Below, piece after piece: positions 6,263 to 32,362 of a DNA stretch of 64,000 nt; positions within the stretch are counted from its first letter, which is position 1; each line of letters starts with the position of its first letter. The notes beneath the pieces are model-generated. The model was given only the letters and a program-made list of their open reading frames with translations, was not told the origin of the DNA and made no database searches. Made by a program: the position numbers and the translations under genes. Where the stretch lies: positions 32,001 through 96,000 of the forward strand of contig CAWJTV010000040.1 in NCBI GenBank assembly GCA_963845755.1, read 5' to 3'. The stretch comes from an uncultured Planctomycetota bacterium. Lineage in GTDB: Bacteria; Planctomycetota; Planctomycetia; Isosphaerales; Isosphaeraceae.

Positions 6263-6376
6263 TCGACGACTCCTGCGGGCCAGATGCCCATCGAATTAGG
6301 CGACCATAAGGCGACCGGAGGCTCTCTGGGCTTTTCCTAAGTCTTTGGCGGGATTACGTTTAGGAGATGGGCAATG

Positions 6377-6419
6377 CCGGATTTTCAGTCCTGTGCTCTA
6401 CCAACTGAGCTATCTGCCC
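6377..6419 (-). pseudogene. 5' half of tRNA-Phe(GAA) at an att junction
   Basis: GGGCAGA-TA-GCTC-AGTTGGTA-GAGC-A-CAGGA-CTGAAAA-TCCGG, then no T-arm. Confidence 0.85.
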
Positions 6420-8777: not shown

Positions 8778-9184
8778 ACGAATTGGGTGGCATCCCGGAC
8801 GATACCGATTTCGGCTGGACCGGCGACCGGCCCGGGATTATCGTCCATGCCCATGACGGGATTTCTGCTTACAACGAATCGAGGCAACAGGATTTGAACC
8901 CCGCGTGGCCCTCTACCTGCTGCCCTATCCCGCTTCGGTCGGATCGACCGAAGTCATTCTCCCCGATTGACCCAGGTCTCTTTCAAGCGCCATTTTGCTC
9001 TGGCAACGCCTTATGCCCATGTGCCCGTACGTTATTCTGGACCGAGCAATTTCAAGAGCCATGTTTCGCACGGGACATCGGCTCATCCACCAGCGCGGCC
9101 CAGACCTCGTTCGATGCCAATCCACGAGCGGGAACTCGAAGACGACGAGGAAAACCCAGGCTGAACCATACCGGAAACCCACCC

Positions 9185-17587: not shown

Positions 17588-17840
17588 TGGGTTACGAAAG
17601 AAGTCTTCATCGTACGAAAAAAGTCCCCTCAGGCATGGTGTCTGCCCAGACTTCTTTCGTACGCCACGAAGTAAGTGGGACCGATCATCGAGATGGCGTC
17701 GTTTTCGATCACCAGGACGGCAGCGCGCTGCGGGTTGCGGAGGGTGTGGCGCGATGGGCGCGTACACCAGCACCACTCGGCACGTTGCGAAAAGCGCGGA
17801 GTCCATTCGAACCTGGAGTTGAGCGTGGCAAAGCCCGGAA

Positions 17841-18160
17841 CGGACGAGCCGGCCAGGCGTTCGCGCTTGTTGAGTCCGGCGTGGTGGCCGGGGCCACCGC
17901 CAATTCCTCGCTGCGAACCGTCACGGGCCGCAAACAGGATGACCAGGCCGCCGAGACGAAGCCCCCCGCAGGAAGCTGCTCGCGGATTCTGGATCAGAGC
18001 CTGGAGCCAACGCGAGCCCGCCCTTCAAGGAACCGGCCGCTCGAGTGACCCAGCACGGTGGCTGGGTTGGCTCAAGGGTGGGCTGGACGATCCCCACCAC
18101 TCACGCCGAAACCACTCTCATCGCGTCGAACACCCGATCCGGACGTTGGCGTACCGCGAT
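17841..18160 (-). ncRNA. Candidate structured RNA downstream of istB (copy 1)
   Basis: Conserved with 31580-31902, with compensatory stem changes. Confidence 0.55.
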
Positions 18161-18164
18161 TTGG

Positions 18165-18935
18165 TCACTCGTCGGTCGAATCGGGATCTTTGTCTTTCAT
18201 GCGATAACTGTCTCCTTGAATCACGATCCCCTCCCCGTGATGCATCAGCCGGTCGATCAAGGCCGTGGCCAGGGTGTTGTCCACATCGAAGAGTTTGCCC
18301 CATTCCCGGAACGGTCGATTCGTGGTGATCACGATCGATCCCACTTCATAACGGGCGGCGACAACCTGGAACAACAAATCGGCCCCACGCTTGTCGATGG
18401 GCAGATAGCCCAGCTCATCAAGGAGGAGAAGACTGGGACGGACATAACTTCGGAGCGTTTTGCCCAGCGACCCATTGAGCTGGGCCGCGGTCAGATGATT
18501 GATCATGTCCACCACACGCGTATGGCGAACCGAATGGCCACGCTCAACGGCTGTGTAACCCAGTGCCGTGAGAAGATGGGACTTGCCCGTTCCGGTCGGC
18601 CCAATCAGAACGGCACAGCCGTGCTGCTCGATGAAGTCGCAGTCGAACAAGCGCACGATCGCGGCCTTGGGGATTCGCTTGGGGAACCTGAAGTCGTATT
18701 CAGCCAGGGTCTTTGGCTTGGGAAGCCGCGCCTCACGCAGCCGACGCTCCAGAGCTCGTTGCTCACGGGCGGCCTGTTCAGCCCCGATCAGGATCGCCAG
18801 AACTTCCAAGAAGGAGCTCCCTTTGCGAGCGGCTTCGTCGAGGACGTCGCGGTAGCTCTTGGCGATCTCTCACAGCTTCAATTCGGCCAGGTCGCGGTCG
18901 AGCCGTGCCTGGAGATTATCCTCACGCCGTGCCAT
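18165..18935 (-). CDS. istB: IS21 helper ATPase IstB (in-frame TGA near 18870)
   Basis: GPTGTGKS, LLLLDELGYLP, ALIDRLMHH. Confidence 0.9.
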
Positions 18936-20432
18936 CAGAGTCCTCGTCGCTGGTGTTACAGAAGCGGTCGTAAATGCCGGGATCCGTCGGTTCCAAATCG
19001 ATCTCGTCAATCAATTCGCGCCGTTTGGGAGTCGGCAGTGTGGGTGTGGGAAGCTGCCGGCGCCGCCGCTCCGCCAGGAGAAGGTTCTCGACGTAGGCCG
19101 CGTCATAGGCCGCCAGCTCCAGGGCCCGGGCGATGGCCGAGACCACCTCGGCCGTGCCGTAGACGCGCGCCAGACCCAGCAAGCGTCGCAGATGGACCCC
19201 CGTCTGCACCGGCTGGCGGTTCAGGCCGAGGTGGAACTGCCGAGCCTCGGGGCCGAGGGCATCAAAGGCCTGTTCCAGCGCCGAGCTCGGCGACCGCCGG
19301 CCCATACTCAGTGCCGCGGTGCGGTGCTCGGGCAGCACGATCAGTTGCCGGCGCCCGTAGCAGCGGGAATGCCGGGCCACGACTTGGCCCTGGTGCACGA
19401 TGCCGACTTCCTGACCGTCGGCGCGAATCGTGACCGTCTGCCGCGCCAGGTGCGGCGGCACCGAGTAACGGTTCGCATCGAACTTGACCCGCGCATGGGG
19501 ACTGGCAACCGCCAGCACGATCTCGGCGGTGTCAAACGGGATCGTGGGAAGTGCGCGGAGCCGCGATCGCTCGTGATGAAACCGGTCTACCGGGCGTTCT
19601 CGAGTCGTCTCATGAATCCGGACGTTGGCAATCTCGTCGCGCCACCGGGGTGCCAGCGCGAGGTAGTCCTCGAAGCGGACGAGCTCGTCGCTGCGACCGG
19701 CCAGGGCGTTTCGTTTCACGTAGCGCACGCCCCCTTCGACAATCCCCTGGGATTCCGGATCGCGCCGTTGGCAGGCGATCGGCTGCAAGTAGTAGTGGCC
19801 GCAGAGCGCCAGGAACTCGGGATGGAAGCAGGCCGCGCGGCCGGAGCCATTGATCACGGCCGCTTTCAAGTTGTCGAAGATGATGGCACGGGGACTGCCA
19901 CCAAAGAACTCCAGGGCGTGCACCAGGCCGCGATAGAATTCCGCCTTGCGCTGCGAGAGGGTGAATTCGATGTAGGTCATCCGGCTGTAGCAGAGGACGG
20001 CCACCAAGACCGAGACCTTGCGGGTCGTGGTCCCGAGTTGGACGTGGCCGCATTCGCCCCAGTCGACCTGCATGGCCTGAGCCGGTTCGTAGTGGACTTC
20101 TTGATAGACGCGACCGCGCGGGGCGAAGGGACCGCACGTAGCGGCGGACGGTAATCACGCTGCCGGTGTAGCCATTGGGACCGCGAGCGATCTCCTCGTG
20201 GACGCGCACCGCCGACAGCTCGGGATACTGGGCCAGCAGGGCGTCGATCTTGGACTTGTAGGGGTCCAAGGAACTGACACGGCAGGGGTCGCGGTGAGTG
20301 GGAGGCTGCTGCAACTGGAGGCGCTCGAGCGACCGTGCGGCAGGAACAGTGAAGTCGCCCGGCGATGGCCCGAGCGGAGAGGTTCTCGATCTCGGCCAGG
20401 CGACGAATCTCGGCCCACAAGGCCACCTTCAT
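18922..20432 (-). CDS. istA: IS21 transposase IstA, frameshifted
   Basis: QVDWG, FDNLK, GIVE motifs; N-terminal HTH. Confidence 0.9.
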
Positions 20433-20842
20433 GGCTGACTCCTTTCCTTGTCAAGAGGTGTCGACGCGATAGCCTGGCGCAGGATATCGCCCAGTTGCAT
20501 CAGCCCGCCGCCGGGCTCGGATCTGCGGCGTTGACAGCGCGGAGGCAAGGAAAGGACCTGGGTTAACGGCGGTTCGTAGGCGATCAGGTCGTAGGCCAAA
20601 AGCTCGTCACGGGCCTGGAGCAAGCTGGGCAGGGGGATGCGCAACCGAGCGGCCAGGGTGCCATCGCTGTAGAAGGACAGGCCGTTGACATCGGCCACGG
20701 CTGACAGAAAGAAGTACAACAGCACGGCCTCGCGTGAGAGCTGGTCCATGTGCTCGCGCACGAAGCGACCGTCGAGCCAGGACCAACCGGTTGCGGGAGG
20801 CCGCCGCAGTCGGTGGGGAACCAGAATGCGCTTGGGTATCAT
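20429..20842 (-). CDS. IS-borne winged-helix accessory protein (orf2)
   Basis: 'LLYFFLSAVADVNGLSFYSDGTLAARL...ARDELL'; homolog at 28906-29315; ATGA-coupled to istA. Confidence 0.75.
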   Translation of the reverse strand: MIPKRILVPHRLRRPPATGWSWLDGRFVREHMDQLSREAVLLYFFLSAVADVNGLSFYSDGTLAARLRIPLPSLLQARDELLAYDLIAYEPPLTQVLSLPPRCQRRRSEPGGGLMQLGDILRQAIASTPLDKERSQP

Positions 20843-20939
20843 GCTGGGGCTCCTGGGGGTGAACAACAGGATGCCCAGGCTAAAGCAGTCTGCCGGTACC
20901 ACGCGATAATTGACGACCGGCGCCTTGGGGGAAGGGTCG

Positions 20940-21517
20940 TCATAGCGGCGGTGACCGGGGTGGCCGATCGGTGGTGTCTTGCTGACACCGGGATCGATTG
21001 CGGTGTGCGGCCTGGTATTCGATGGCGCGCTTGTTCCGGCCATCCAAGGTGCCGCGAGCGAGCCACTTACGTTCGCGGTCCCGGACGTTGCGAACGGCCT
21101 GACGGCAGGCGGTGCCGCAGTAGCGAGCCGGGTTGCGCGATGAGTTCACCGGGGGTTGGTAGCAGCCAGGCCGATCGCAGAAGGGGTGGGGGAAAAATTT
21201 TCTGCTGCGTGACCACGCGCAGGCGCAACGTCCGGGTTCTCAATAGCTTTGGGCGTGGCTTTGGCTTGCTGGCGGCGCTGTTTCTCGGCCTGGGCATGCT
21301 GGGCTTTGGCGCGGGCGTCTTGGCGGCGTTTTGCCTGGCGGCGAGCCGCTTGCCAACGGCGGACTTCCCGCAGGCATTCCGGGTCCTGGCAGTAGCGCTG
21401 GTTCCAGCATCGCGGCTGGTACTTGCGTCGGCAACCTTTGCGCAGGCAGATCCGTGGGCGCGGTCGGCGGCCTCTGGGCAGACGGCGGTATCGTTTCGTA
21501 ACGTGAGGAGTGCCCAC
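20940..21517 (-). CDS. IS-borne double C4 zinc-finger protein (orf1), predicted -1 frameshift at 21200-21194
   Basis: CLRKGC...YCQDPEC in frame 0, then CDRPGC...YCGTAC in the -1 frame after A-AAT-TTT. Confidence 0.65.
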
Positions 21518-21622
21518 GGGAGCGGCTACTCTCGAGGGAAAAGCTCGGGGAGAATGTTGATCGCGTTCTCCTCGAGCGCTATTCCAACGCAGACCCGACG
21601 CTGACATGCCAGTATATCGTCT

Positions 21623-21777
21623 TCTCGAGAACAAGGACGGCAAGACAAACGGTCAGAAGTGCCGCGCTGGGAACCAGACGAAGGCGCTGCCGTTGAAGCG
21701 ATCGCCCTCTCGAGAACGAGAACGGAGAGACAAACGGTCAGAAGTGCCGCGCTGGGAACCAGACGAAGGCGCTGCCG
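21623..21777. repeat. Tandem duplication (period 85 bp, exact 50-bp core) in the IS end
   Basis: AGACAAACGGTCAGAAGTGCCGCGCTGGGAACCAGACGAAGGCGCTGCCG at 21643 and 21728. Confidence 0.9.
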
Positions 21778-21819
21778 GTCCAATGATCGAAAGCGCTGCC
21801 GAATCAAAGATCGGTCCCA

Positions 21820-25579: not shown

Positions 25580-27270
25580 TCATCCATCGACCGAGGCCGG
25601 CGACACGCCAGGAGACGAGACGGCTCCCCCTTCCGAGGCCCGCAGGTCTCTGAGTAAGCGATCAAAGGCTTTCTGATAGGCGTCGTGATCCTTCCAACCA
25701 TTGAAATCGCCGATGTGCCGAGTCCGTTTGATGTGCGTGGCCCAGGCGACCGGGGTTTCCAGGATCGCATCGTCGAGCCGGATCGGGAAGAGGATCGTCC
25801 GGTTCTCCCGGTGTTCCCGCTCCAAGGCCGTTTCAACTTCGGTCTCGACCCAATTGCTCGCGATGGAGTGTTCCGAGAGAACGAGCATGAGCTTGTCGTG
25901 GACCCGGATTGCCTGATCGATCTGATGGCGGAACTTGTCACCGATCTTGAGATCCTCGTGGTCGAGCCAACAGCGTACACCCTTGGCCTGGAGATCCGCA
26001 TGGAGGCGTTCGGCGAAGTCCCGGTTCTTGGAGCTGTAACTGATGAAGCACGAATAGAACTGAATCGGACTCATCGAGCTAATCAGGCTGGGGGCGTAGG
26101 CAATGAGTACATTAGGTAGGCCACAGCCTCGCAGGAATGCATCGGGGATATTTCCTTTGGAGCGAACGAGAGTATCGGTACTTATCGAGCTAGCCTGGAT
26201 TCCCATGGAGGCAAAAACGGGGTAGGCTACGACGCAATCCATAAACGAAGCAAAATTCGTCGAAGTGGGTTTTCCCCTGGATTTCAAGTGGTTCTGGCTT
26301 GAAACGGCTCATCGAAACGCCTCTCTCGATGTTAGGTGATCCGTAAACTGAAAAAAGAGCATCCACGGTGTCAACTCAATGCATCCACTGTGGTGAATTC
26401 GATAGATTTGTCGCAAGAACCCCTTGTTTTCCAGGAGGAAGTGAGATTCGATCGACGAACATATCATCCATGGTGATCAAGTTAACTTAGTGGGAGACCC
26501 ACCTTTAACTCTTGGAGGAGCATAACCAGTTCCGAGGCGAAAAGCTGAGTATCGCGGGCTTTTTTCCAATCATGCGGCAACAAATGTTAGCCCAATCTGC
26601 CTCCATGGGAATCCAGGCTAGGAGCCATGTGGTCGATTGAATCGAGACCGTTGACTTCGGATAGATCCACATTTGCGATGATTGTATCATTGAAGATGGA
26701 CTTCGTGAGAAAAGCTCGATGCAGACTGGCTGAGAGGATACTTGCACCAGTGAGATCGGCCGCGCTCAAGTTCGCTCCATCAAGCTTGGCCCATCGAAGG
26801 TTCGCAAACTTGAGACTAGCCCCGCTGAGGTTGGCCTCGCGCAGATTCGCCCCACTGAGATCGGCTCCGCTGAGATCCGCCTTGGCGAGATCACTCATCG
26901 AAAGCTGCGCCCGGCTGAGATTGGTCTCACTGAGATCAGCCCCTCTTATATCTGCGTTGGAGAGTATAGTCTCGAAAAGGATGGCATCCAGAAATGTGCC
27001 GTCGCTGAGGTTGGCTCTGCTGAGAGTGGCTCCGCTGAGGTTAGCTCGAATCAGATCTACATTTCGGAGATCGGCTCCGCGGAGATCGACATTTCGGAGA
27101 TTGGATTCGCTGAGACTTGCGTCGTGGAAATCGACTTTCGTAAGCTTGGCATCACGAAGACACGCGCGGTCGAGGAGTGGTATCTCTTCACCAGATTCAC
27201 GACGTTGATTCCATTCGGCGATTCCTTCCGGTCCGCCTTTGAGCAATCTAAGCGCCTCATCGCGATCCAT
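25580..27270 (-). pseudogene. Pentapeptide-repeat plus TIR domain protein interrupted by a MITE
   Basis: ADLS/ANLS repeats; TIR 'CFISYSS...SNWVETE'; removing 26193-26620 restores HMAPSSISTDT. Confidence 0.88.
26193..26618. mobile_element. 426-bp MITE, TA duplication in a CTAG target (IS630/IS5-like targeting)
   Basis: Perfect 21-bp TIR GCCTGGATTCCCATGGAGGCA; AT-rich interior without a transposase. Confidence 0.9.
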
Positions 27271-28230
27271 GGCCCTGCTCCCCCCTTGATGCAAGTCTCG
27301 GATCAAGCGGACAATTAAGACTCTATCTGAGGGGGGAACCGGACGTCCATGACCGAGCGGGTCCTCAACGGCGATAAGACCCGGGGATTGCCGCGCGGGA
27401 CGAACTCGCGGATAATTTCCATTCTTCCAGCCCTTGATTTCCTGCCTGGAAACAGCCCGCAATGCACCCCCGCCGCGCCTTCCGTGCCCTTCTGATGCTG
27501 ACCCTCGTCTCTCTGATGACCGCCGCGGCCGCCTCCCCGGCATGGGCCTGGGGGAGGTTGGGTCATCGCGTGATTGCCAGGCTGGCCGAACATCACCTGA
27601 CCGATCGGGCGAAGCAAGAGATCAAGGCCCTGCTGGAGCCGGGAGAGTTGCTGGCCGACTGCTCGACGTGGGCCGACGAGGTCCGGGGGAGGATGAGGAA
27701 GTCTGCCCCTTGGCACTACATCGACATCCCTTTAGATGAGCTTAAGTACGATGACAAGTGGGCCGCGGACGACTCCCGCCATGGTTCCATTGTCCCGAAG
27801 ATCCGGGAGTTCCTGAACGTCCTTGGGAACCCGGACGCCCCGGTCGCGGAACGCCGCCCTGCGCTCCGTTTCGTCGTGCATCTGGTCGAGGACCTCCACC
27901 AGCCTTGCCACGTCGGGGACAACCACGACCGCGGCGGGAACGATACCCAAGTCCGTTGGTTCTCCCGCGGGTCCAACATGCACCGGGTGTGGGACACCTG
28001 ATACCGATCGGGAAATCAGAGCCATCTTCGATCGTCTGGAGGGAGCCACCCGAGCTGTCGTCGATCCTGGCCTCTCCTTCTGAAGCGCATGTCTCAGACC
28101 GTTTCATCTTTTGTCTTGTTCTCAACAAGGCGATAGACTCACAAATCAGCGTCTCCTTCGCCTTTTGATCACGCTCGAGGAGGATGGTAGGGCATCCTCC
28201 TCGAGCTTTCCCTTGGGAGCAGTACCTCCC

Positions 28231-28810
28231 GTGGGCGCCGGTCAGGGTACGCCAAAGCACGGCACTTCGGCCAGAGGGCGCCGACTGCGCCCGCGGATTT
28301 GTTTCCGCAAGGGGTGTGGACGCAAGTATCAGCCCCGCCGCTGGAACCAGCGCCACTGCCAGGACCCGCAATGTCAGCGGGAGGTCCACCGCTGGCAGGC
28401 AGTGCGCCGGCAAGCCCGACATCGCCAGCACGCCCAGGCCAGAGCCCAGCATGCCCAGGCGGAAAAAGTGCGCCGTCAGCGAGCGAAGTCTGCGTCCCAG
28501 ACCATTGAGAGCTCAGAAGTTACGCCGGCGCGTGGTCACGCAGCAGAAGATTTTTTTCTCCGCCGTTATGCGATCGGCCGGGCTGCCATGAGCACCCCGT
28601 GAGCTCGCCCCGCAACCCCGCCCGCTACTGCGGCCCTGCCTGCCGGCAGGCCGTTCGCAATGTCCAGGACCGGGAACGCAAGTGGCTTTCCCGCGGCACC
28701 TCGGATGGGCGGAAGAAGCGCGCGATCGAGTACCAGGCCGCACGAAGCGCCGCATCGTTCGATCAGGCCATCTCACCAACTCGGCACCATCGCGACCACC
28801 TCCCCAATGA
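28231..28810 (+). CDS. IS-borne double zinc-finger orf1, predicted -1 frameshift at 28551-28557 (3' end approximate)
   Basis: CFRKGC...HCQDPQC, then T-TTT-TTT, then CDRPGC...YCGPAC. Confidence 0.65.
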
Positions 28811-28905
28811 CGGTCCTCCCCAGGCGGCGCCGGTCGTCACTTATCGCGTGGCCATCCGCCGCGCTGGTTTGCTGGAGCCGGTGGTTTTCCCTCAGGAGTT
28901 CCAGC

Positions 28906-29315
28906 ATGCCTGCGACACCCATCCTCGTCCCCGCGACTGCGGCGTCCCCCCCAGACCGGTTGGTCCTGGGTTGACCGTCGCTTCGTGCGCGAGCACGCCT
29001 GCGCACCTCTCCCGCGACGCCGTGCTGCTGTACTTCACCCTCTGTGCCGTGGCCGACAAGCACGGGTTGTCGTTCTATGGCGACGCCACCATGGCCGCCA
29101 TGGTGCGGATGAACTTGCCGGCCCTGATGGCCGCCCGTGAGGAATTGCTCGCCCGCGATCTCATCGCCCATGAGACGCGTTTCACTCAGGTGCTCTCCCT
29201 GCCGCCAGCCGGCCAACGCCGCGGTGAGTCCGGCGGAGGACTGATGTCTCTGGGCGAGATCTTGCGCCAGGCCGCCGCACTCCCTCAGCTCGACGACGAA
29301 AGGAGCCTGCCATGA
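28906..29315 (+). CDS. IS-borne winged-helix orf2 (indels)
   Basis: 'LLYFTLCAVADKHGLSFYGD...AREELL'. Confidence 0.7.
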
Positions 29316-30821
29316 ACGTCGGTTTGTGGGCGGAGATCCGCCGCCTGGCCGAGATCGACAAGCTCTCCACCCGGGCCATTGCGCGACGACTCCACTGCGC
29401 CCGGCGGACCGTGACCGCGGCCCTCCAGCGGGATCATCCCTCGGCGCCCCCCCGCGCACGCCGCGCCAGTCTTTTGGACCCGTACAAGGCCAAGATCAAC
29501 GCCTTGGTGGAAAAGTGTCCCGAACTCTCGGCGGTGCGAATCCGCGAGGAGATCGCCCGCGGGCCCGACGGTTATACCGGCAGTACGATCCTCGTGCGTC
29601 GCTATCTCCGGACCATCCGCCCGGCTCGCGGACGGATCTACCAGGAGGTCCATTACGAGCCGGCCCAGGCCATGCAGGTGGACTGGGGCGAGTGCGGTCA
29701 CGTCCAACTCGGGACCACGACCCGCAAGGTCTCGGTCTTCGTGGCCGTGCTCTGCTACAGCCGCCTGATGTTCATCGAGTTCACGCTGTCGCATGCAAGG
29801 CCGAGTTCTATCGCGGCGTGGTGCACGCCCTGGAGTTCTTCGGCGGCAGTCCCCGCGCCCTGATCGTCGACAACTTGAAAGCCGCCGTCCTCAACGGCTC
29901 GGGCCGCACCGCCTGTTTCCATCCCGAGTTCCTGGCGCTGTGCGGTCACTTCTGCCTGCAGCCGATCGCTTGCGAACGACGCGACCCGGAATCCAAAGGG
30001 ATCGTCGAGGGGGCCGTGCGCTACGTCAAGCACAACGCCTTGGCCGGCCGTGGGGCGGAGCTGACGGGCTTCGAGGACTACCTGGCTCTGGCACCACTGT
30101 GGCGTGACCAGGTGGCCAACGTGCGGCTCCATGAGACGACCAAAGAGCGGCCGGTCGATCGCTTCCTGCGTGAGCGCCCGCGGCTGCGCCCGTTGCCGGC
30201 GATCCCGTTGGACACCGACGAGGTCGTGGCCGCGGTCGTCAGTCCCCATGCGCGGGTCGAGTTCGACGGCAACCGCTATTCGACACCGCCGAAGTTCGCT
30301 CGCCGGGCGGTCACGATCCGCGCCGACCGCGACGCGGTCCGCGTCCTCCACGAGGGTCAGGTGCTGACCCAGCATGTCCGTTGCTACCAGCGGGGACAGT
30401 TGATGGTCCGGCCGGACCATCGCACTGCCCGCTGGCCCTGGGCCGTCGGGCTCGGAGCACCGCGCTGGAACAGACGTTTGACGCGTTGGGGCCCGAGGCA
30501 CGCCAGTTCCACCTCGGCCTGCGGCGTCAGCCGATCAAGACCGGCGTTCACCTGCGTCGCTTACTCGGCCTGGCCCAACTCTACGGGGCCACCGAACTGC
30601 TCTCAGCCATCGCGGAGGCCCTGGAACTGGCGATCTACGATGCTGCGGCGGTCGAGAACCTCCTGTTGGCCCAACGGCGACGGCGGCAACTCCCGACCCC
30701 CACGTTGCCCACGCCCCGGCGGCGCGAATTGATCGATGAGATCGAACTGGAACCGGCCGATCCCAGCTTCTACGATCGCTTCTGCACTCACACCGCGGAG
30801 GACGCTCATGGCACGACGTGA
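29312..30821 (+). CDS. istA: IS21 transposase IstA, frameshifted
   Basis: QVDWG, VDNLK, KGIVE. Confidence 0.9.
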
Positions 30822-31577
30822 GGACAATCTCCAGACCCGATTGGACCGCGATCTGGCCGAATTGAAGTTGCCCGAGATCGCCAAAGCCTACCGCGAAGTG
30901 CTGGATGACGCCGGCGCAAGGGGAGCTCGATGCTGGAAGTCCTGGCGACTCTGATCGGCCTGGAGCAAGCCGCCCGTCAGCAACGCGCCCTCCAGCGGCG
31001 GCTGTGCGAGGCCCGGCTGCCCAAGTTGAAAACCCTGGCCGAATATGATTTCACCTTTCCCAAGCGGATTCCCAAGGCAACGATCCTGCGGTTGTTCGAC
31101 TGCGACTTCATCCCCCGCCATGGCTTCGCCGTGCTGATCGGCCCGACCGGAACCGGAAAGTCGCATCTCCTCACGGCGTTGGGTTACACGGCGGCCGAGC
31201 GCGGCTACTCGGTCCGCCATACACGGGTCGTGGACATGATCAATCATCTCACCACGGCCCAGATCAACGGTCTGCTGGGCAAGGTGCTGAAGACCTACGT
31301 CCGTCCCAGTCTGCTCCTGCTCGATGAGCTGGGCTATCTGCCCATCGACAAGCGCGGGGCCGATCTGTTGTTCCAGGTGGTCGCGGCCCGTTATGAATCC
31401 GGATCGATCGTCCTATCGACGAATCGACCCTTCCGGGAATGGGGCGCCCTGTTCGACGTGGACAACACCCTGGCCACGGCCTTGATCGACCGGCTGATGC
31501 ATCACGGGGAGGCACTGGTGATTCAAGGAGATAGCTATCGGATGAGAGACAAAGATTCTGATTCGACCAGCGCGTGA
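30808..31577 (+). CDS. istB: IS21 ATPase IstB, frameshift near 30915
   Basis: GPTGTGKS, DELGYLP, IDRLMHH. Confidence 0.9.
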
Positions 31578-31579
31578 AT

Positions 31580-31902
31580 CAGCGCGGCGCGTCCACGTCC
31601 GGAGCGGGTATTCCCCGCGAAGTGAGCATCCTTTGGCGTTAGTGACCGGGATGTCCAGCCCACCCTTGAGCCAGCCCGGCGATCCTGCCGGGCTGTTGGT
31701 TCAAGCGGCCGGTTCCTTGAACAGCGGGCTCGCGTCGGCCCCAGGCCCTGGTCCAGGATCCGCCAGCAGCTCCAAGTAGGGGCTTCGTCTTGGCGACCTG
31801 GTCATCCTGTGGTGGCCCGCGGCGGTCCACGGCGAGTGAATTGGCGGTGGTCCCGTCCCCAACGTCGGACTCACGGAGCAGGAACGCCTGGCCGGTCCGT
31901 CC
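31580..31902 (+). ncRNA. Candidate structured RNA downstream of istB (copy 2)
   Basis: Covarying hairpins relative to copy 1. Confidence 0.55.
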
Positions 31903-32362
31903 GCGTCTCGCGACGTCACGACACAGATTGAGACCGACCTCACTCCTCGCATTTGACCGCGTGCCGAGCGGCGTGGCCGCATGCGCCGATCGTCTTGGAC
32001 CTCACTCGAGCGCCCCTTGTGGCTCCGTCTTCACGATCAAAAGTGGCTCTCATTTCCAGATCGGTCCCAACACCGGCATCATCGAACGGGCGAGCCAGGA
32101 TGGGGCCCGGTGGCTCGACGACCTGGTCGCGATGGACACGCCAGAAGCCCGCCAGAAGGCTAAGGGCGACTCCGTCGAGGAGTGGGTGACCGCGAGCCTG
32201 CTGGCGGCCCGGGATGCCTACCAGGACCCGGCGACGGGGCAGAGGATGAAGTCGGGGGCCAAACTGGGGGATGCGTACTACGAGCGGAGCCTGCCCGTGG
32301 CGAAGCGGCGGCTTCTTGAGGCGGGGGTGAGGCTGGCGTGGGTGCTCAACGAGGGCCTCGCG

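Follow-up and report, generated by a model that had tools for sequence, protein, structure and literature searches.

A predicted large RNA overlapping istB in an Isosphaeraceae lineage of IS21-family elements and retained by its mini-elements

An IS21 lineage of the Isosphaeraceae probably specifies a clade-specific, large RNA of approximately 700 nt, whose predicted fold comprises two rod-like structures, the first of which (rod 1) lies within the coding sequence of istB and the second (rod 2) in the noncoding region downstream of it. The fold is very probably real and under selection, as judged from comparison of homologous sequences, and both rods recur in mini-elements that have lost the genes of the full element. 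The window analyzed here is a 64,000-nucleotide stretch of an uncultured planctomycete (GCA_963845755.1, contig CAWJTV010000040.1, positions 32,001 to 96,000), whose genome comprises 14.3 Mb with a G+C content of 64%.

The IS21-family elements of the window

The window harbors two elements, each an IS21 element carrying two additional genes, orf1 and orf2, upstream of istA and istB (Table 1). Both belong to the IS21 family, as all of the family features that were assessed are present. The ends are 50 bp in length with CA termini and two GATC-N9-GAGCCA units each, and target duplications of 5 to 6 bp flank 9 of 10 full elements. The IstA fragment of copy 1 matches NF033546 with 163.6 bits (cut-off, 160), a copy 2 fragment scoring 111.9 in an assembly in which these genes are frameshifted, while the product of istB, located directly downstream of istA, matches PF01695 (E 1.4e-65) and NF038214 (234 bits; cut-off, 200).

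Copy 2 is inserted in an S1/P1 nuclease gene and is flanked by the 5-bp target duplication ACACC (27994-27998 and 32070-32074); its twin on contig C39 is 99.4% identical and occupies an unrelated site with a 6-bp duplication. Near-identical twins of both copies occur at other places in the genome (C24 and C39). An early in-frame TGA in istB of copy 1 (18870-18872, minus strand) probably represents a real inactivation, since it is common to the C40 and C24 copies, and the many other frameshifts, which differ between twin copies, may be assembly errors. The left end of copy 1 contains a tandem duplication of approximately 85 bp (21616-21777), and several such left-end units are also found in the derivatives L009, L020, and L041. 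Elsewhere in the window, a MITE-like repeat of 433 bp (26189-26622) has about 20 near-identical copies in the genome, and a truncated tRNA represented by its 5′ part alone (6368-6419, minus strand) is possibly the scar of an integrated element.

Table 1. Features of the two IS21-family elements and of the predicted RNA (window coordinates)
Feature	Position	Strand	Description
IS21-family element, copy 2	27999-32069	+	4071 bp, TG...CA ends
Left end	27999-28048	+	50 bp, two GATC-N9-GAGCCA repeats (L1/L2)
Predicted inward promoter	28111-28139	+	TTGTCT-17-TAGACT, read by eye from alignment
Leader	28173-28230	+	Terminator-like hairpin (28173-28206), then hairpin covering the Orf1 ribosome-binding site
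Orf1, Cys/Arg-rich	28231-28810	+	Two frames; GTG start and end coordinate predicted
Orf2, predicted winged-helix protein	28906-29315	+	Frameshifted in copy 2; intact in copy 1 (20429-20842)
istA, DDE transposase	29312-30821	+	Frameshifted in this assembly
istB, AAA+ helper	30808-31577	+	1-nt deletion near 30914 (C39 copy as reference)
Predicted large RNA	31300-32000	+	About 700 nt; placement of ends predicted
Rod 1	31335-31499	+	Long imperfect hairpin over the last third of istB
AAGGAG	31525-31530	+	Unpaired linker; Shine-Dalgarno-like
Rod 2 (core)	31648-31853	+	Three-way junction
3′ elements	31917-31968	+	Conserved, little or no covariation
Right end	32020-32069	-	50 bp, two repeats (R1/R2)
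IS21 element, copy 1	17676-21819	-	4144 bp, 76% identical to copy 2
Copy 1 rods	Rod 1, about 18243-18407; rod 2 core, 17894-18081	-	Equivalents of the copy 2 rods

Promoter-like hexamers and two hairpins upstream of orf1 (28111-28233) are predicted to constitute an attenuator-like leader. The -10-like hexamer of the inward promoter is kept in all 10 aligned full elements, and both hairpins are kept in six lineages, the terminator hairpin with covariation; a strict sigma70 consensus scan of the window element returned no promoter and did not list 28111-28139.

In Orf1 (about 21510-20940, minus strand, in copy 1), a T-run (28551-28557) links two parts with zinc-finger-like motifs, each part combining a CxxxxC...CxxxC motif with an Arg-rich stretch. 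This two-frame arrangement is common to at least the full elements displayed in the alignment, and it is probable that Orf1 is made via programmed frameshifting at the T-run. No Pfam or NCBIfam family was matched above cut-off, the relatives of Orf1 being unnamed Atlas clusters; two-part open reading frames similar to Orf1 precede orf2 in the distant elements L086, L089, and L091. Orf2, which is represented by 1138 related clusters, yielded an AlphaFold model with a pLDDT of 85.6, for which the best Foldseek row, the RepA_N-type initiator 4pta, was nonsignificant (E 6e-3; none at E≤0.001). Neither the sequences of solved structures nor Pfam, the latter above cut-off, returned a match to Orf2.

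A conserved and covarying fold downstream of istB

The original prediction had proposed, from the two window copies, that a noncoding segment downstream of istB (31580-31902) encodes a structured RNA on the istAB strand. Conservation of the segment is confirmed (78% identity over 325 nt), its counterpart in copy 1 being located at C40:49841-50158 (window 17841-18158). The view that the sequence then diverges as far as the terminal inverted repeat (TIR) requires correction, as conserved motifs and a bulged hairpin (31943-31968) run on to about 31986, and only at about 31990-32010 is the intervening sequence highly variable (conservation, 0.51). In this lineage, the noncoding 3′ region amounts to 490 nt.

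Homologues were collected from related genomes, among which 11 of 61 contained a match, and from metagenomes, where 47 of 120 pattern matches were true homologues; 10 pattern matches in viral contigs included none. Removal of sequences with >93% identity reduced 101 near-full copies to 66 nonredundant sequences with a mean identity of 64%, which form three clades, all with the same core fold. Within rod 2, a helix (31660-64/31846-50) closes a variable side hairpin (31665-31705) and a long rod (31708-31845) which includes invariant bulged helices (31742-31756/31798-31809). A possible further closing helix (31572-76/31917-21) spans the istB stop codon.

Five stems had been drawn from the two copies, of which two hold and three were mispaired. 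All 58 sequences whose ends could be parsed fold into the side hairpin (GCCCGGC/GCCGGGC; 29 to 44 nt in length) through 10 or more pairs. AGCTCC/GGGGCT shows compensatory events and, at five of its six positions, is paired in 61 to 66 of 66 sequences. Only 31 of 65 sequences form the closing pair CCTG/CAGG. For GCGGGC/GCCCGC, which pairs in 39 to 61 of 65 to 66 sequences, an alternative partner at 31825-31830 is available (51/63 to 62/66), and for GGCCGG/CTGGCC, which pairs in 40 to 65 of 66 sequences with zero compensatory events, the partner at 31841-31845 is paired in 63 to 65 of 66.

Covariation in a deeper alignment was apparent in tests of the whole structure and not in any single pair. 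An all-pairs G-test with a tree null (R-scape-like, own implementation) returned no pair that was individually significant by the R-scape standard (best E, 0.3), its top pairs representing clade signal. The consensus structure displayed 53.7 compensatory events versus 7.5 ± 2.7 expected (slid controls, 5 to 13) and 107 same-branch double changes versus 57 ± 7 (slid controls, 56 to 73). Because this structure had been derived from the same alignment, the test was repeated with pairs taken from the two window copies alone, using as the null rate-matched pairs likewise capable of pairing in these two copies; such hold-out pairs accumulated 35.75 compensatory events on the 66-sequence tree versus 6.7 ± 2.5, with a maximum of 17.6 in 2000 draws. 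Window-derived pairs were kept in 75 to 76% of cells in clades B and C, compared to 66 to 67 ± 4%, a value inside the null maximum. A separate 50-row alignment paired in 88.3% of cells, with 162 cells changed on both sides versus 68 ± 9 in shuffled and 29 to 48 in slid controls. Single sequences folded modestly better than their shuffles (z of -1.66 and -2.82 for the two copies and -1.1 for 31310-32005); the case for a structured RNA rests on comparison, not on folding energy.

The segment preserves no protein, in agreement with the earlier reading: 25 sequences were without codon periodicity, with a synonymous fraction of 0.22 to 0.38 across all six frames, and a hidden protein on either strand is ruled out by the absence of a conserved reading frame among them. 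The reported preference of G-U pairs for the istAB strand was likewise recovered, with 23 changes to G-U versus 9 to A-C at 27 strand-neutral Watson-Crick pairs.

Extension of the structure into istB

There is good support for a structured RNA encoded by the element on the istAB strand. The unit starts inside istB and has about double the length originally outlined. Because the istB-derived part is retained by mini-elements, covaries in rod 1, and is constrained at silent sites, the predicted RNA likely spans about 31300 to about 32000, the 5′ end having been placed from mini-element junctions and promoter position and the 3′ end from the loss of conservation.

In the old mini-element family described below, rod 1 is noncoding and better paired, with 11.7 compensatory events versus 3.6 ± 1.6 (19 mini-elements) and 111 G-U versus 33 A-C combinations. 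The window istB sequences keep 76% and 81% of the rod 1 pairs, compared to 61 to 62 ± 6%. When 16 istB sequences were folded independently, 17 of the resulting pairs coincided with those of rod 1. The evidence for rod 1 is considered moderate.

Divergence at four-fold sites was 0.167 in the rod 1 part of istB versus 0.408 upstream (187 clade pairs, non-independent), while the corresponding values for distant istB genes, which served as a control, were 0.432 and 0.414 (178 pairs, also non-independent). By region of the element, it was 0.18 in the rod 1 part versus 0.42 in orf2, 5′ istA, and 5′ istB. The silent-site constraint at rod 1 appears, on these comparisons, to be restricted to this clade; folding relative to synonymous shuffles gave a mean z of -1.72 for 17 clade sequences and -0.41 for 22 distant ones. 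Recombination with mini-elements could homogenize the rod 1 region, yet neighboring windows stay saturated. In a gap-filtered alignment, 8 of 19 mini-elements have ATG-TGA after the AAGGAG motif of the linker.

Two soil RNA libraries from one study (share, 0.04), the only RNA data in which the region was found, contain contigs of a relative with mini-element-type upstream sequence, one of 621 nt (depth, 45.6) corresponding to about 31383-32002 and one of 680 nt corresponding to about 31321-31999 (window-equivalent); contigs are blind to strand, ends, and level. These contigs fit a discrete RNA and were not counted as evidence, since the runs had been found with the same stretch and repeats break contigs.

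Mini-elements retain the ends, a promoter-like motif, and both rods

Many homologues of the 3′ region are located in non-autonomous elements. Mini-elements with both ends (n = 21) range from 917 to 1528 bp, and in 20 of these the start of the right part falls at 31304-31331 (window-equivalent), which is within istB by some 250 bases; as mini-elements were found through rod 2, its retention is built in, whereas that of the istB part is not. Among 50 copies with enough upstream sequence, all classed by eye, 18 were of the full type, 27 were derivatives (19 of the old family and 8 young ones with a recognizable istB stub), and 5 were without rod 1, such that 27 of 32 non-autonomous copies start just upstream of rod 1. 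Five different junction types were distinguished among the derivatives, between about 31280 and 31321. The sequence GTCCCA within istB (31304-31309) is identical to the final six bases of the right end; this TIR-like sequence adjoins two of the five junction types, the other three being located elsewhere. Mosaic copies indicate recombination.

In the old family, the istB part has decayed to a noncoding paralogue of the same length. Just upstream of it, 18 of 19 old mini-elements carry a motif of the TTG-N3-N16/18-TATGCT type that is predicted to represent a conserved sigma70-like promoter. Eleven additional stretches, at least one of which is an insertion already represented among the earlier copies, yielded this motif in 8 cases, compared to a chance expectation of 0.5% per 140 nt. 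Some young derivatives have lost the terminator, the istB stub being fused to the promoter region of the left end. That mini-elements have moved is evident from 5- to 7-bp target duplications at six sites; most of the old ones lack a target duplication, and they keep promoter and both rods at 50 to 80% identity.

Forty-seven ends, distributed over 5 genomes, were identified by a search blind to the RNA. Both rods are present in each of the 12 inverted end pairs within 7 kb, none of which is shorter than 1081 bp, and follow-up of the unpaired ends produced five ends without a recognizable partner and one element lacking rod 2. The latter (L345 2684-5982; G008 C16) spans 3.3 kb, lacks a target duplication, and contains cargo DNA and a portion of rod 1 in addition to both ends.

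Further copies illustrate the variety of these derivatives. An old-family relic in the window itself (8995-9115, plus strand), which matches the family profile at E 1.4e-11, comprises the promoter and the beginning of rod 1. A 3.6-kb unit (L001 5177-8783; G000 C4, with a twin on C3), 97% identical on the two contigs, comprises an old-family mini-element and, with open reading frames named by eye, an ECF sigma factor, a probable anti-sigma factor, and a signal peptidase, and finishes with a second right end carrying rod 2 only; it is possibly a composite element. In G012 (L051, L071, L340, and L347), an old-family mini-element lies within the left end of a young one with a 5-bp duplication, and the nested 2.2-kb unit is present at four places.

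Distribution of the RNA and of the four-gene arrangement

Orf2 precedes istA in 72 of 80 GTDB loci. The RNA profile matched 0 of 80 and 0 of 22 distant loci with an Orf2-type gene (102 loci), and the 3′ regions of distant relatives are mostly short (52 to 119 nt after istB in 10 of 16 with confident ends); such four-gene elements therefore do not generally need the RNA. The RNA and Orf2 as a linked pair are ruled out, since Orf2-type elements are widespread without the RNA. The same 3′ slot in distant relatives is short or holds unrelated cargo with opposite-strand open reading frames, and the longer 3′ regions (4 checked) were not folded better than shuffles.

Strong DNA matches are confined to the family of the host among 301 genomes of its class, and the nearest other istB in 401 genomes of the phylum is 55% identical, with a short 3′ region; from this distribution, the RNA appears to be a lineage-specific gain. 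Phage records contained no match, and among the 15 of 108 plasmid matches listed, only the istB region was matched. The orf1-orf2 arrangement upstream of istA-istB marks a widespread and apparently unnamed IS21 subgroup (L098-L177 and L077-L097) in Verrucomicrobiota, Planctomycetota, Acidobacteriota, Proteobacteria, and others, in which Orf2 is sometimes encoded after istB (L079 and L095).

Comparison with known RNAs of mobile elements

The original prediction offered a guide, a scaffold, a regulator, or a ribozyme as possible roles, of which a scaffold and a protein-binding regulator, both considered below, are carried forward. A target guide is ruled out, copies that are 99% alike being located at unrelated sites. 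The 5- to 7-bp target duplications show no consensus by eye, and three variable windows produced chance-level genome matches only. Antisense action on the mRNA or leader of the element is also rejected, the longest helix found in all six lineages being 9 bp compared to 8 to 10 bp for block-shuffled sequences, and identity runs between the RNA and upstream element DNA were absent or at chance level. As regards a ribozyme, the suggested cmscan analysis matched no Rfam family to the segment; at gathering score, Rfam 15 reported tRNAs alone in the window (best E in 31300-32100, 0.37), and six homologous loci yielded none apart from a tRNA and one chance row. A clade-specific basic tail or patch on IstA is likewise ruled out, as outgroups also possess a basic tail.

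Bridge or seek RNAs, encoded by IS110 and IS1111 elements, contain two large stem-loop domains and base-pair with target and donor. A structured RNA of an insertion sequence is shared with the present case, but the enzyme here is a DDE transposase whose copies are at unrelated sites, and the element does not combine a DEDD recombinase with the lack of long TIRs. The omega RNAs of TnpB/IscB (IS200/IS605) are scaffolds which overlap the 3′ end of the coding sequence at the right end of the element. The present RNA resembles them in architecture only, likewise lying close to the right end and covering a coding sequence at its 3′ end. Its conserved part stops about 80 nt before the end of the element, and no RNA-guided nuclease gene (TnpB/IscB) is present among the element open reading frames scanned.

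With IS21 and IS5376, the present elements share the istA-istB operon, TG...CA ends with two internal repeats, as described in the available parts of PMC10122671 and PMC11208146 for the family, 5- to 7-bp duplications, and unrelated targets. To these are added two upstream genes, the attenuator-like leader, a 490-nt 3′ noncoding region, a fold overlapping istB, and mini-elements carrying the RNA cassette. The word RNA appears 5 and 4 times, respectively, in these two papers, of which the same portions describe no IS21-encoded RNA and report that short ends alone suffice for in vitro integration by IstA and IstB of IS5376. The main text of open-access literature yielded no description of such an IS21 RNA.

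The nearest working analogue, according to the accessible sections of PMC8450116 and PMC12288879, is Ssr9 of the Pseudomonas putida IS110-family element ISPpu9, an RNA whose gene lies downstream of the transposase and whose stand-alone modules are mobilized by the enzyme of the element. As given in those sections, Ssr9 pairs with an antisense RNA, Asr9, whereas no conserved pairing with element mRNA is apparent here; moreover, the enzyme family differs and the present RNA overlaps the helper gene. Mobile or repeat candidates of the MRSC-65-2 type, for which part of PMC11109978 reports covarying stems, multiple copies, proximity to transposases, and an undecided RNA or DNA form, also merit comparison. 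MRSC-65-2 is a single long stem, unlike the two rods described here, and IS21 and planctomycetes are not mentioned in that paper.

Discussion

In view of the observed conservation, noncoding nature, covariation, strand bias, silent-site constraint of istB, and composition of the mini-elements, we tentatively propose, with well under even confidence, that the folded RNA is a cis-acting scaffold for transposition which mini-elements exploit. Such a role presupposes that the region is transcribed between approximately the ends proposed above, that the RNA binds protein, and that transposition needs it. The RNA would hold the proteins of the element near the right end while being transcribed and still attached to the polymerase. 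In full elements the istAB message would end in this RNA, which would be synthesized solely upon read-through of the leader terminator, a requirement which would couple expression to movement such that only transcribed copies move. Mini-elements, which in about 1 to 1.5 kb combine only the two ends with the RNA region and a promoter-like signal, would make the RNA themselves, constitutively, and borrow the proteins of full elements. The simplest explanation for the presence of the promoter and both rods in gene-less elements would be selection operating at the transposition level.

Several observations speak against a scaffold. No pair is individually significant, and clades B and C fall within the null maximum. 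Distant four-gene relatives lack the RNA, and IS5376 integrates in vitro with short ends alone (PMC10122671 and PMC11208146, in the parts available). IstA has no clade-specific basic patch in its tail, most old mini-elements lack a target duplication, and L345 has both ends but no rod 2. Two of the five junction types could reflect a deletion hot spot at the GTCCCA of 31304-31309.

A rather unlikely alternative is that the RNA acts in trans as a decoy which titrates an element protein, such as IstB or Orf1, a possible anti-terminator, and that promoter-driven mini-elements persist by holding full elements in check. The retention of promoter and rods by old mini-elements at the identities given above, mostly without target duplications, would be expected of such a damper, for which the leader terminator and covered ribosome-binding site offer a regulatory step to act on, and precedent exists in Ssr9 of ISPpu9, a 3′ RNA that has been proposed to reduce the expression of the transposase (PMC8450116, in part). 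The silent-site constraint inside istB of full elements and the repeated origin of young derivatives with the same 5′ boundary would be left unexplained, and conserved antisense pairing does not exceed chance (longest, 9 bp; shuffles, 8 to 10).

Of similarly doubtful standing is a passenger RNA, selfish or useful to the host and dispensable for transposition, for example, a decoy for ribosomes, CsrA, or a nuclease. The short or cargo-filled 3′ slot of distant relatives, with no folding signal in the 4 checked, is compatible with this, as are the Shine-Dalgarno-like AGGAG kept in the linker and the ssr9 modules, which are mobilized alone and are not needed for transposition (PMC12288879, in part). 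Captured cargo is, however, difficult to reconcile with an RNA of which half is built from istB coding sequence, and every one of the copies collected carries element-derived sequence.

It is improbable that the structure is a cis element of the istAB message, serving stability, Rho protection, or control of istB translation, which a deletion hot spot has passively kept in mini-elements. Its position at the 3′ end of the operon, its overlap with istB, the GTCCCA at two junction types, and the moderate evidence for rod 1 fit such an element, but gene-less old mini-elements keep the promoter and both rods, compensatory changes continue after rod 1 has lost its reading frame, and three junction types lie away from GTCCCA.

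More improbable still is a single-stranded DNA fold in a copy-out or replication intermediate, read by the RepA_N-like Orf2 or by IstA. As G-T wobble also stabilizes DNA hairpins, the strand bias does not separate RNA from DNA, and the nearest, nonsignificant fold match of Orf2 is a plasmid initiator domain; against this stand the conserved promoter motif immediately 5′ of the structure in mini-elements and the presence of Orf2 in many elements without the structure. The absence of any function, with G+C-rich subterminal sequence inherited and homogenized by recombination among copies, would accord with the weak single-sequence z-scores, the lack of a significant pair, and the mosaic copies but is disfavored as very improbable by the hold-out covariation, by bulged helices that stay invariant at a mean identity of 64% next to windows that are saturated (31990-32010; 0.51), and by the conserved promoter and clade-specific silent-site constraint.

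Returning to the cis-acting scaffold, a further reading is put forward, again with well under even confidence. The lineage might represent an RNA-dependent DDE/AAA+ transposon, in which a 700-nt scaffold, half of it drawn from the istB frame, would license transposition of its own template. Promoter-plus-RNA mini-elements would parasitize such a system through constitutive production of the scaffold, as a DNA-transposon counterpart of SINE-like hijacking.

IS21 is the minimal model for systems that combine a transposase with an ATPase and are related to Tn7, Mu, and CRISPR-associated transposons, and it has been treated as a protein-and-DNA system only. Even as a mere passenger, the RNA would constitute a large family without an Rfam match. 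If this lineage has indeed acquired a large structured RNA, it would show a transposon RNA arising from coding sequence, that of the ATPase gene, and subsequently being freed from coding in mini-elements, and it might reveal an RNA step in cis-preference or in the control of transposition, a role which the natural 1-kb mini-elements make directly testable.
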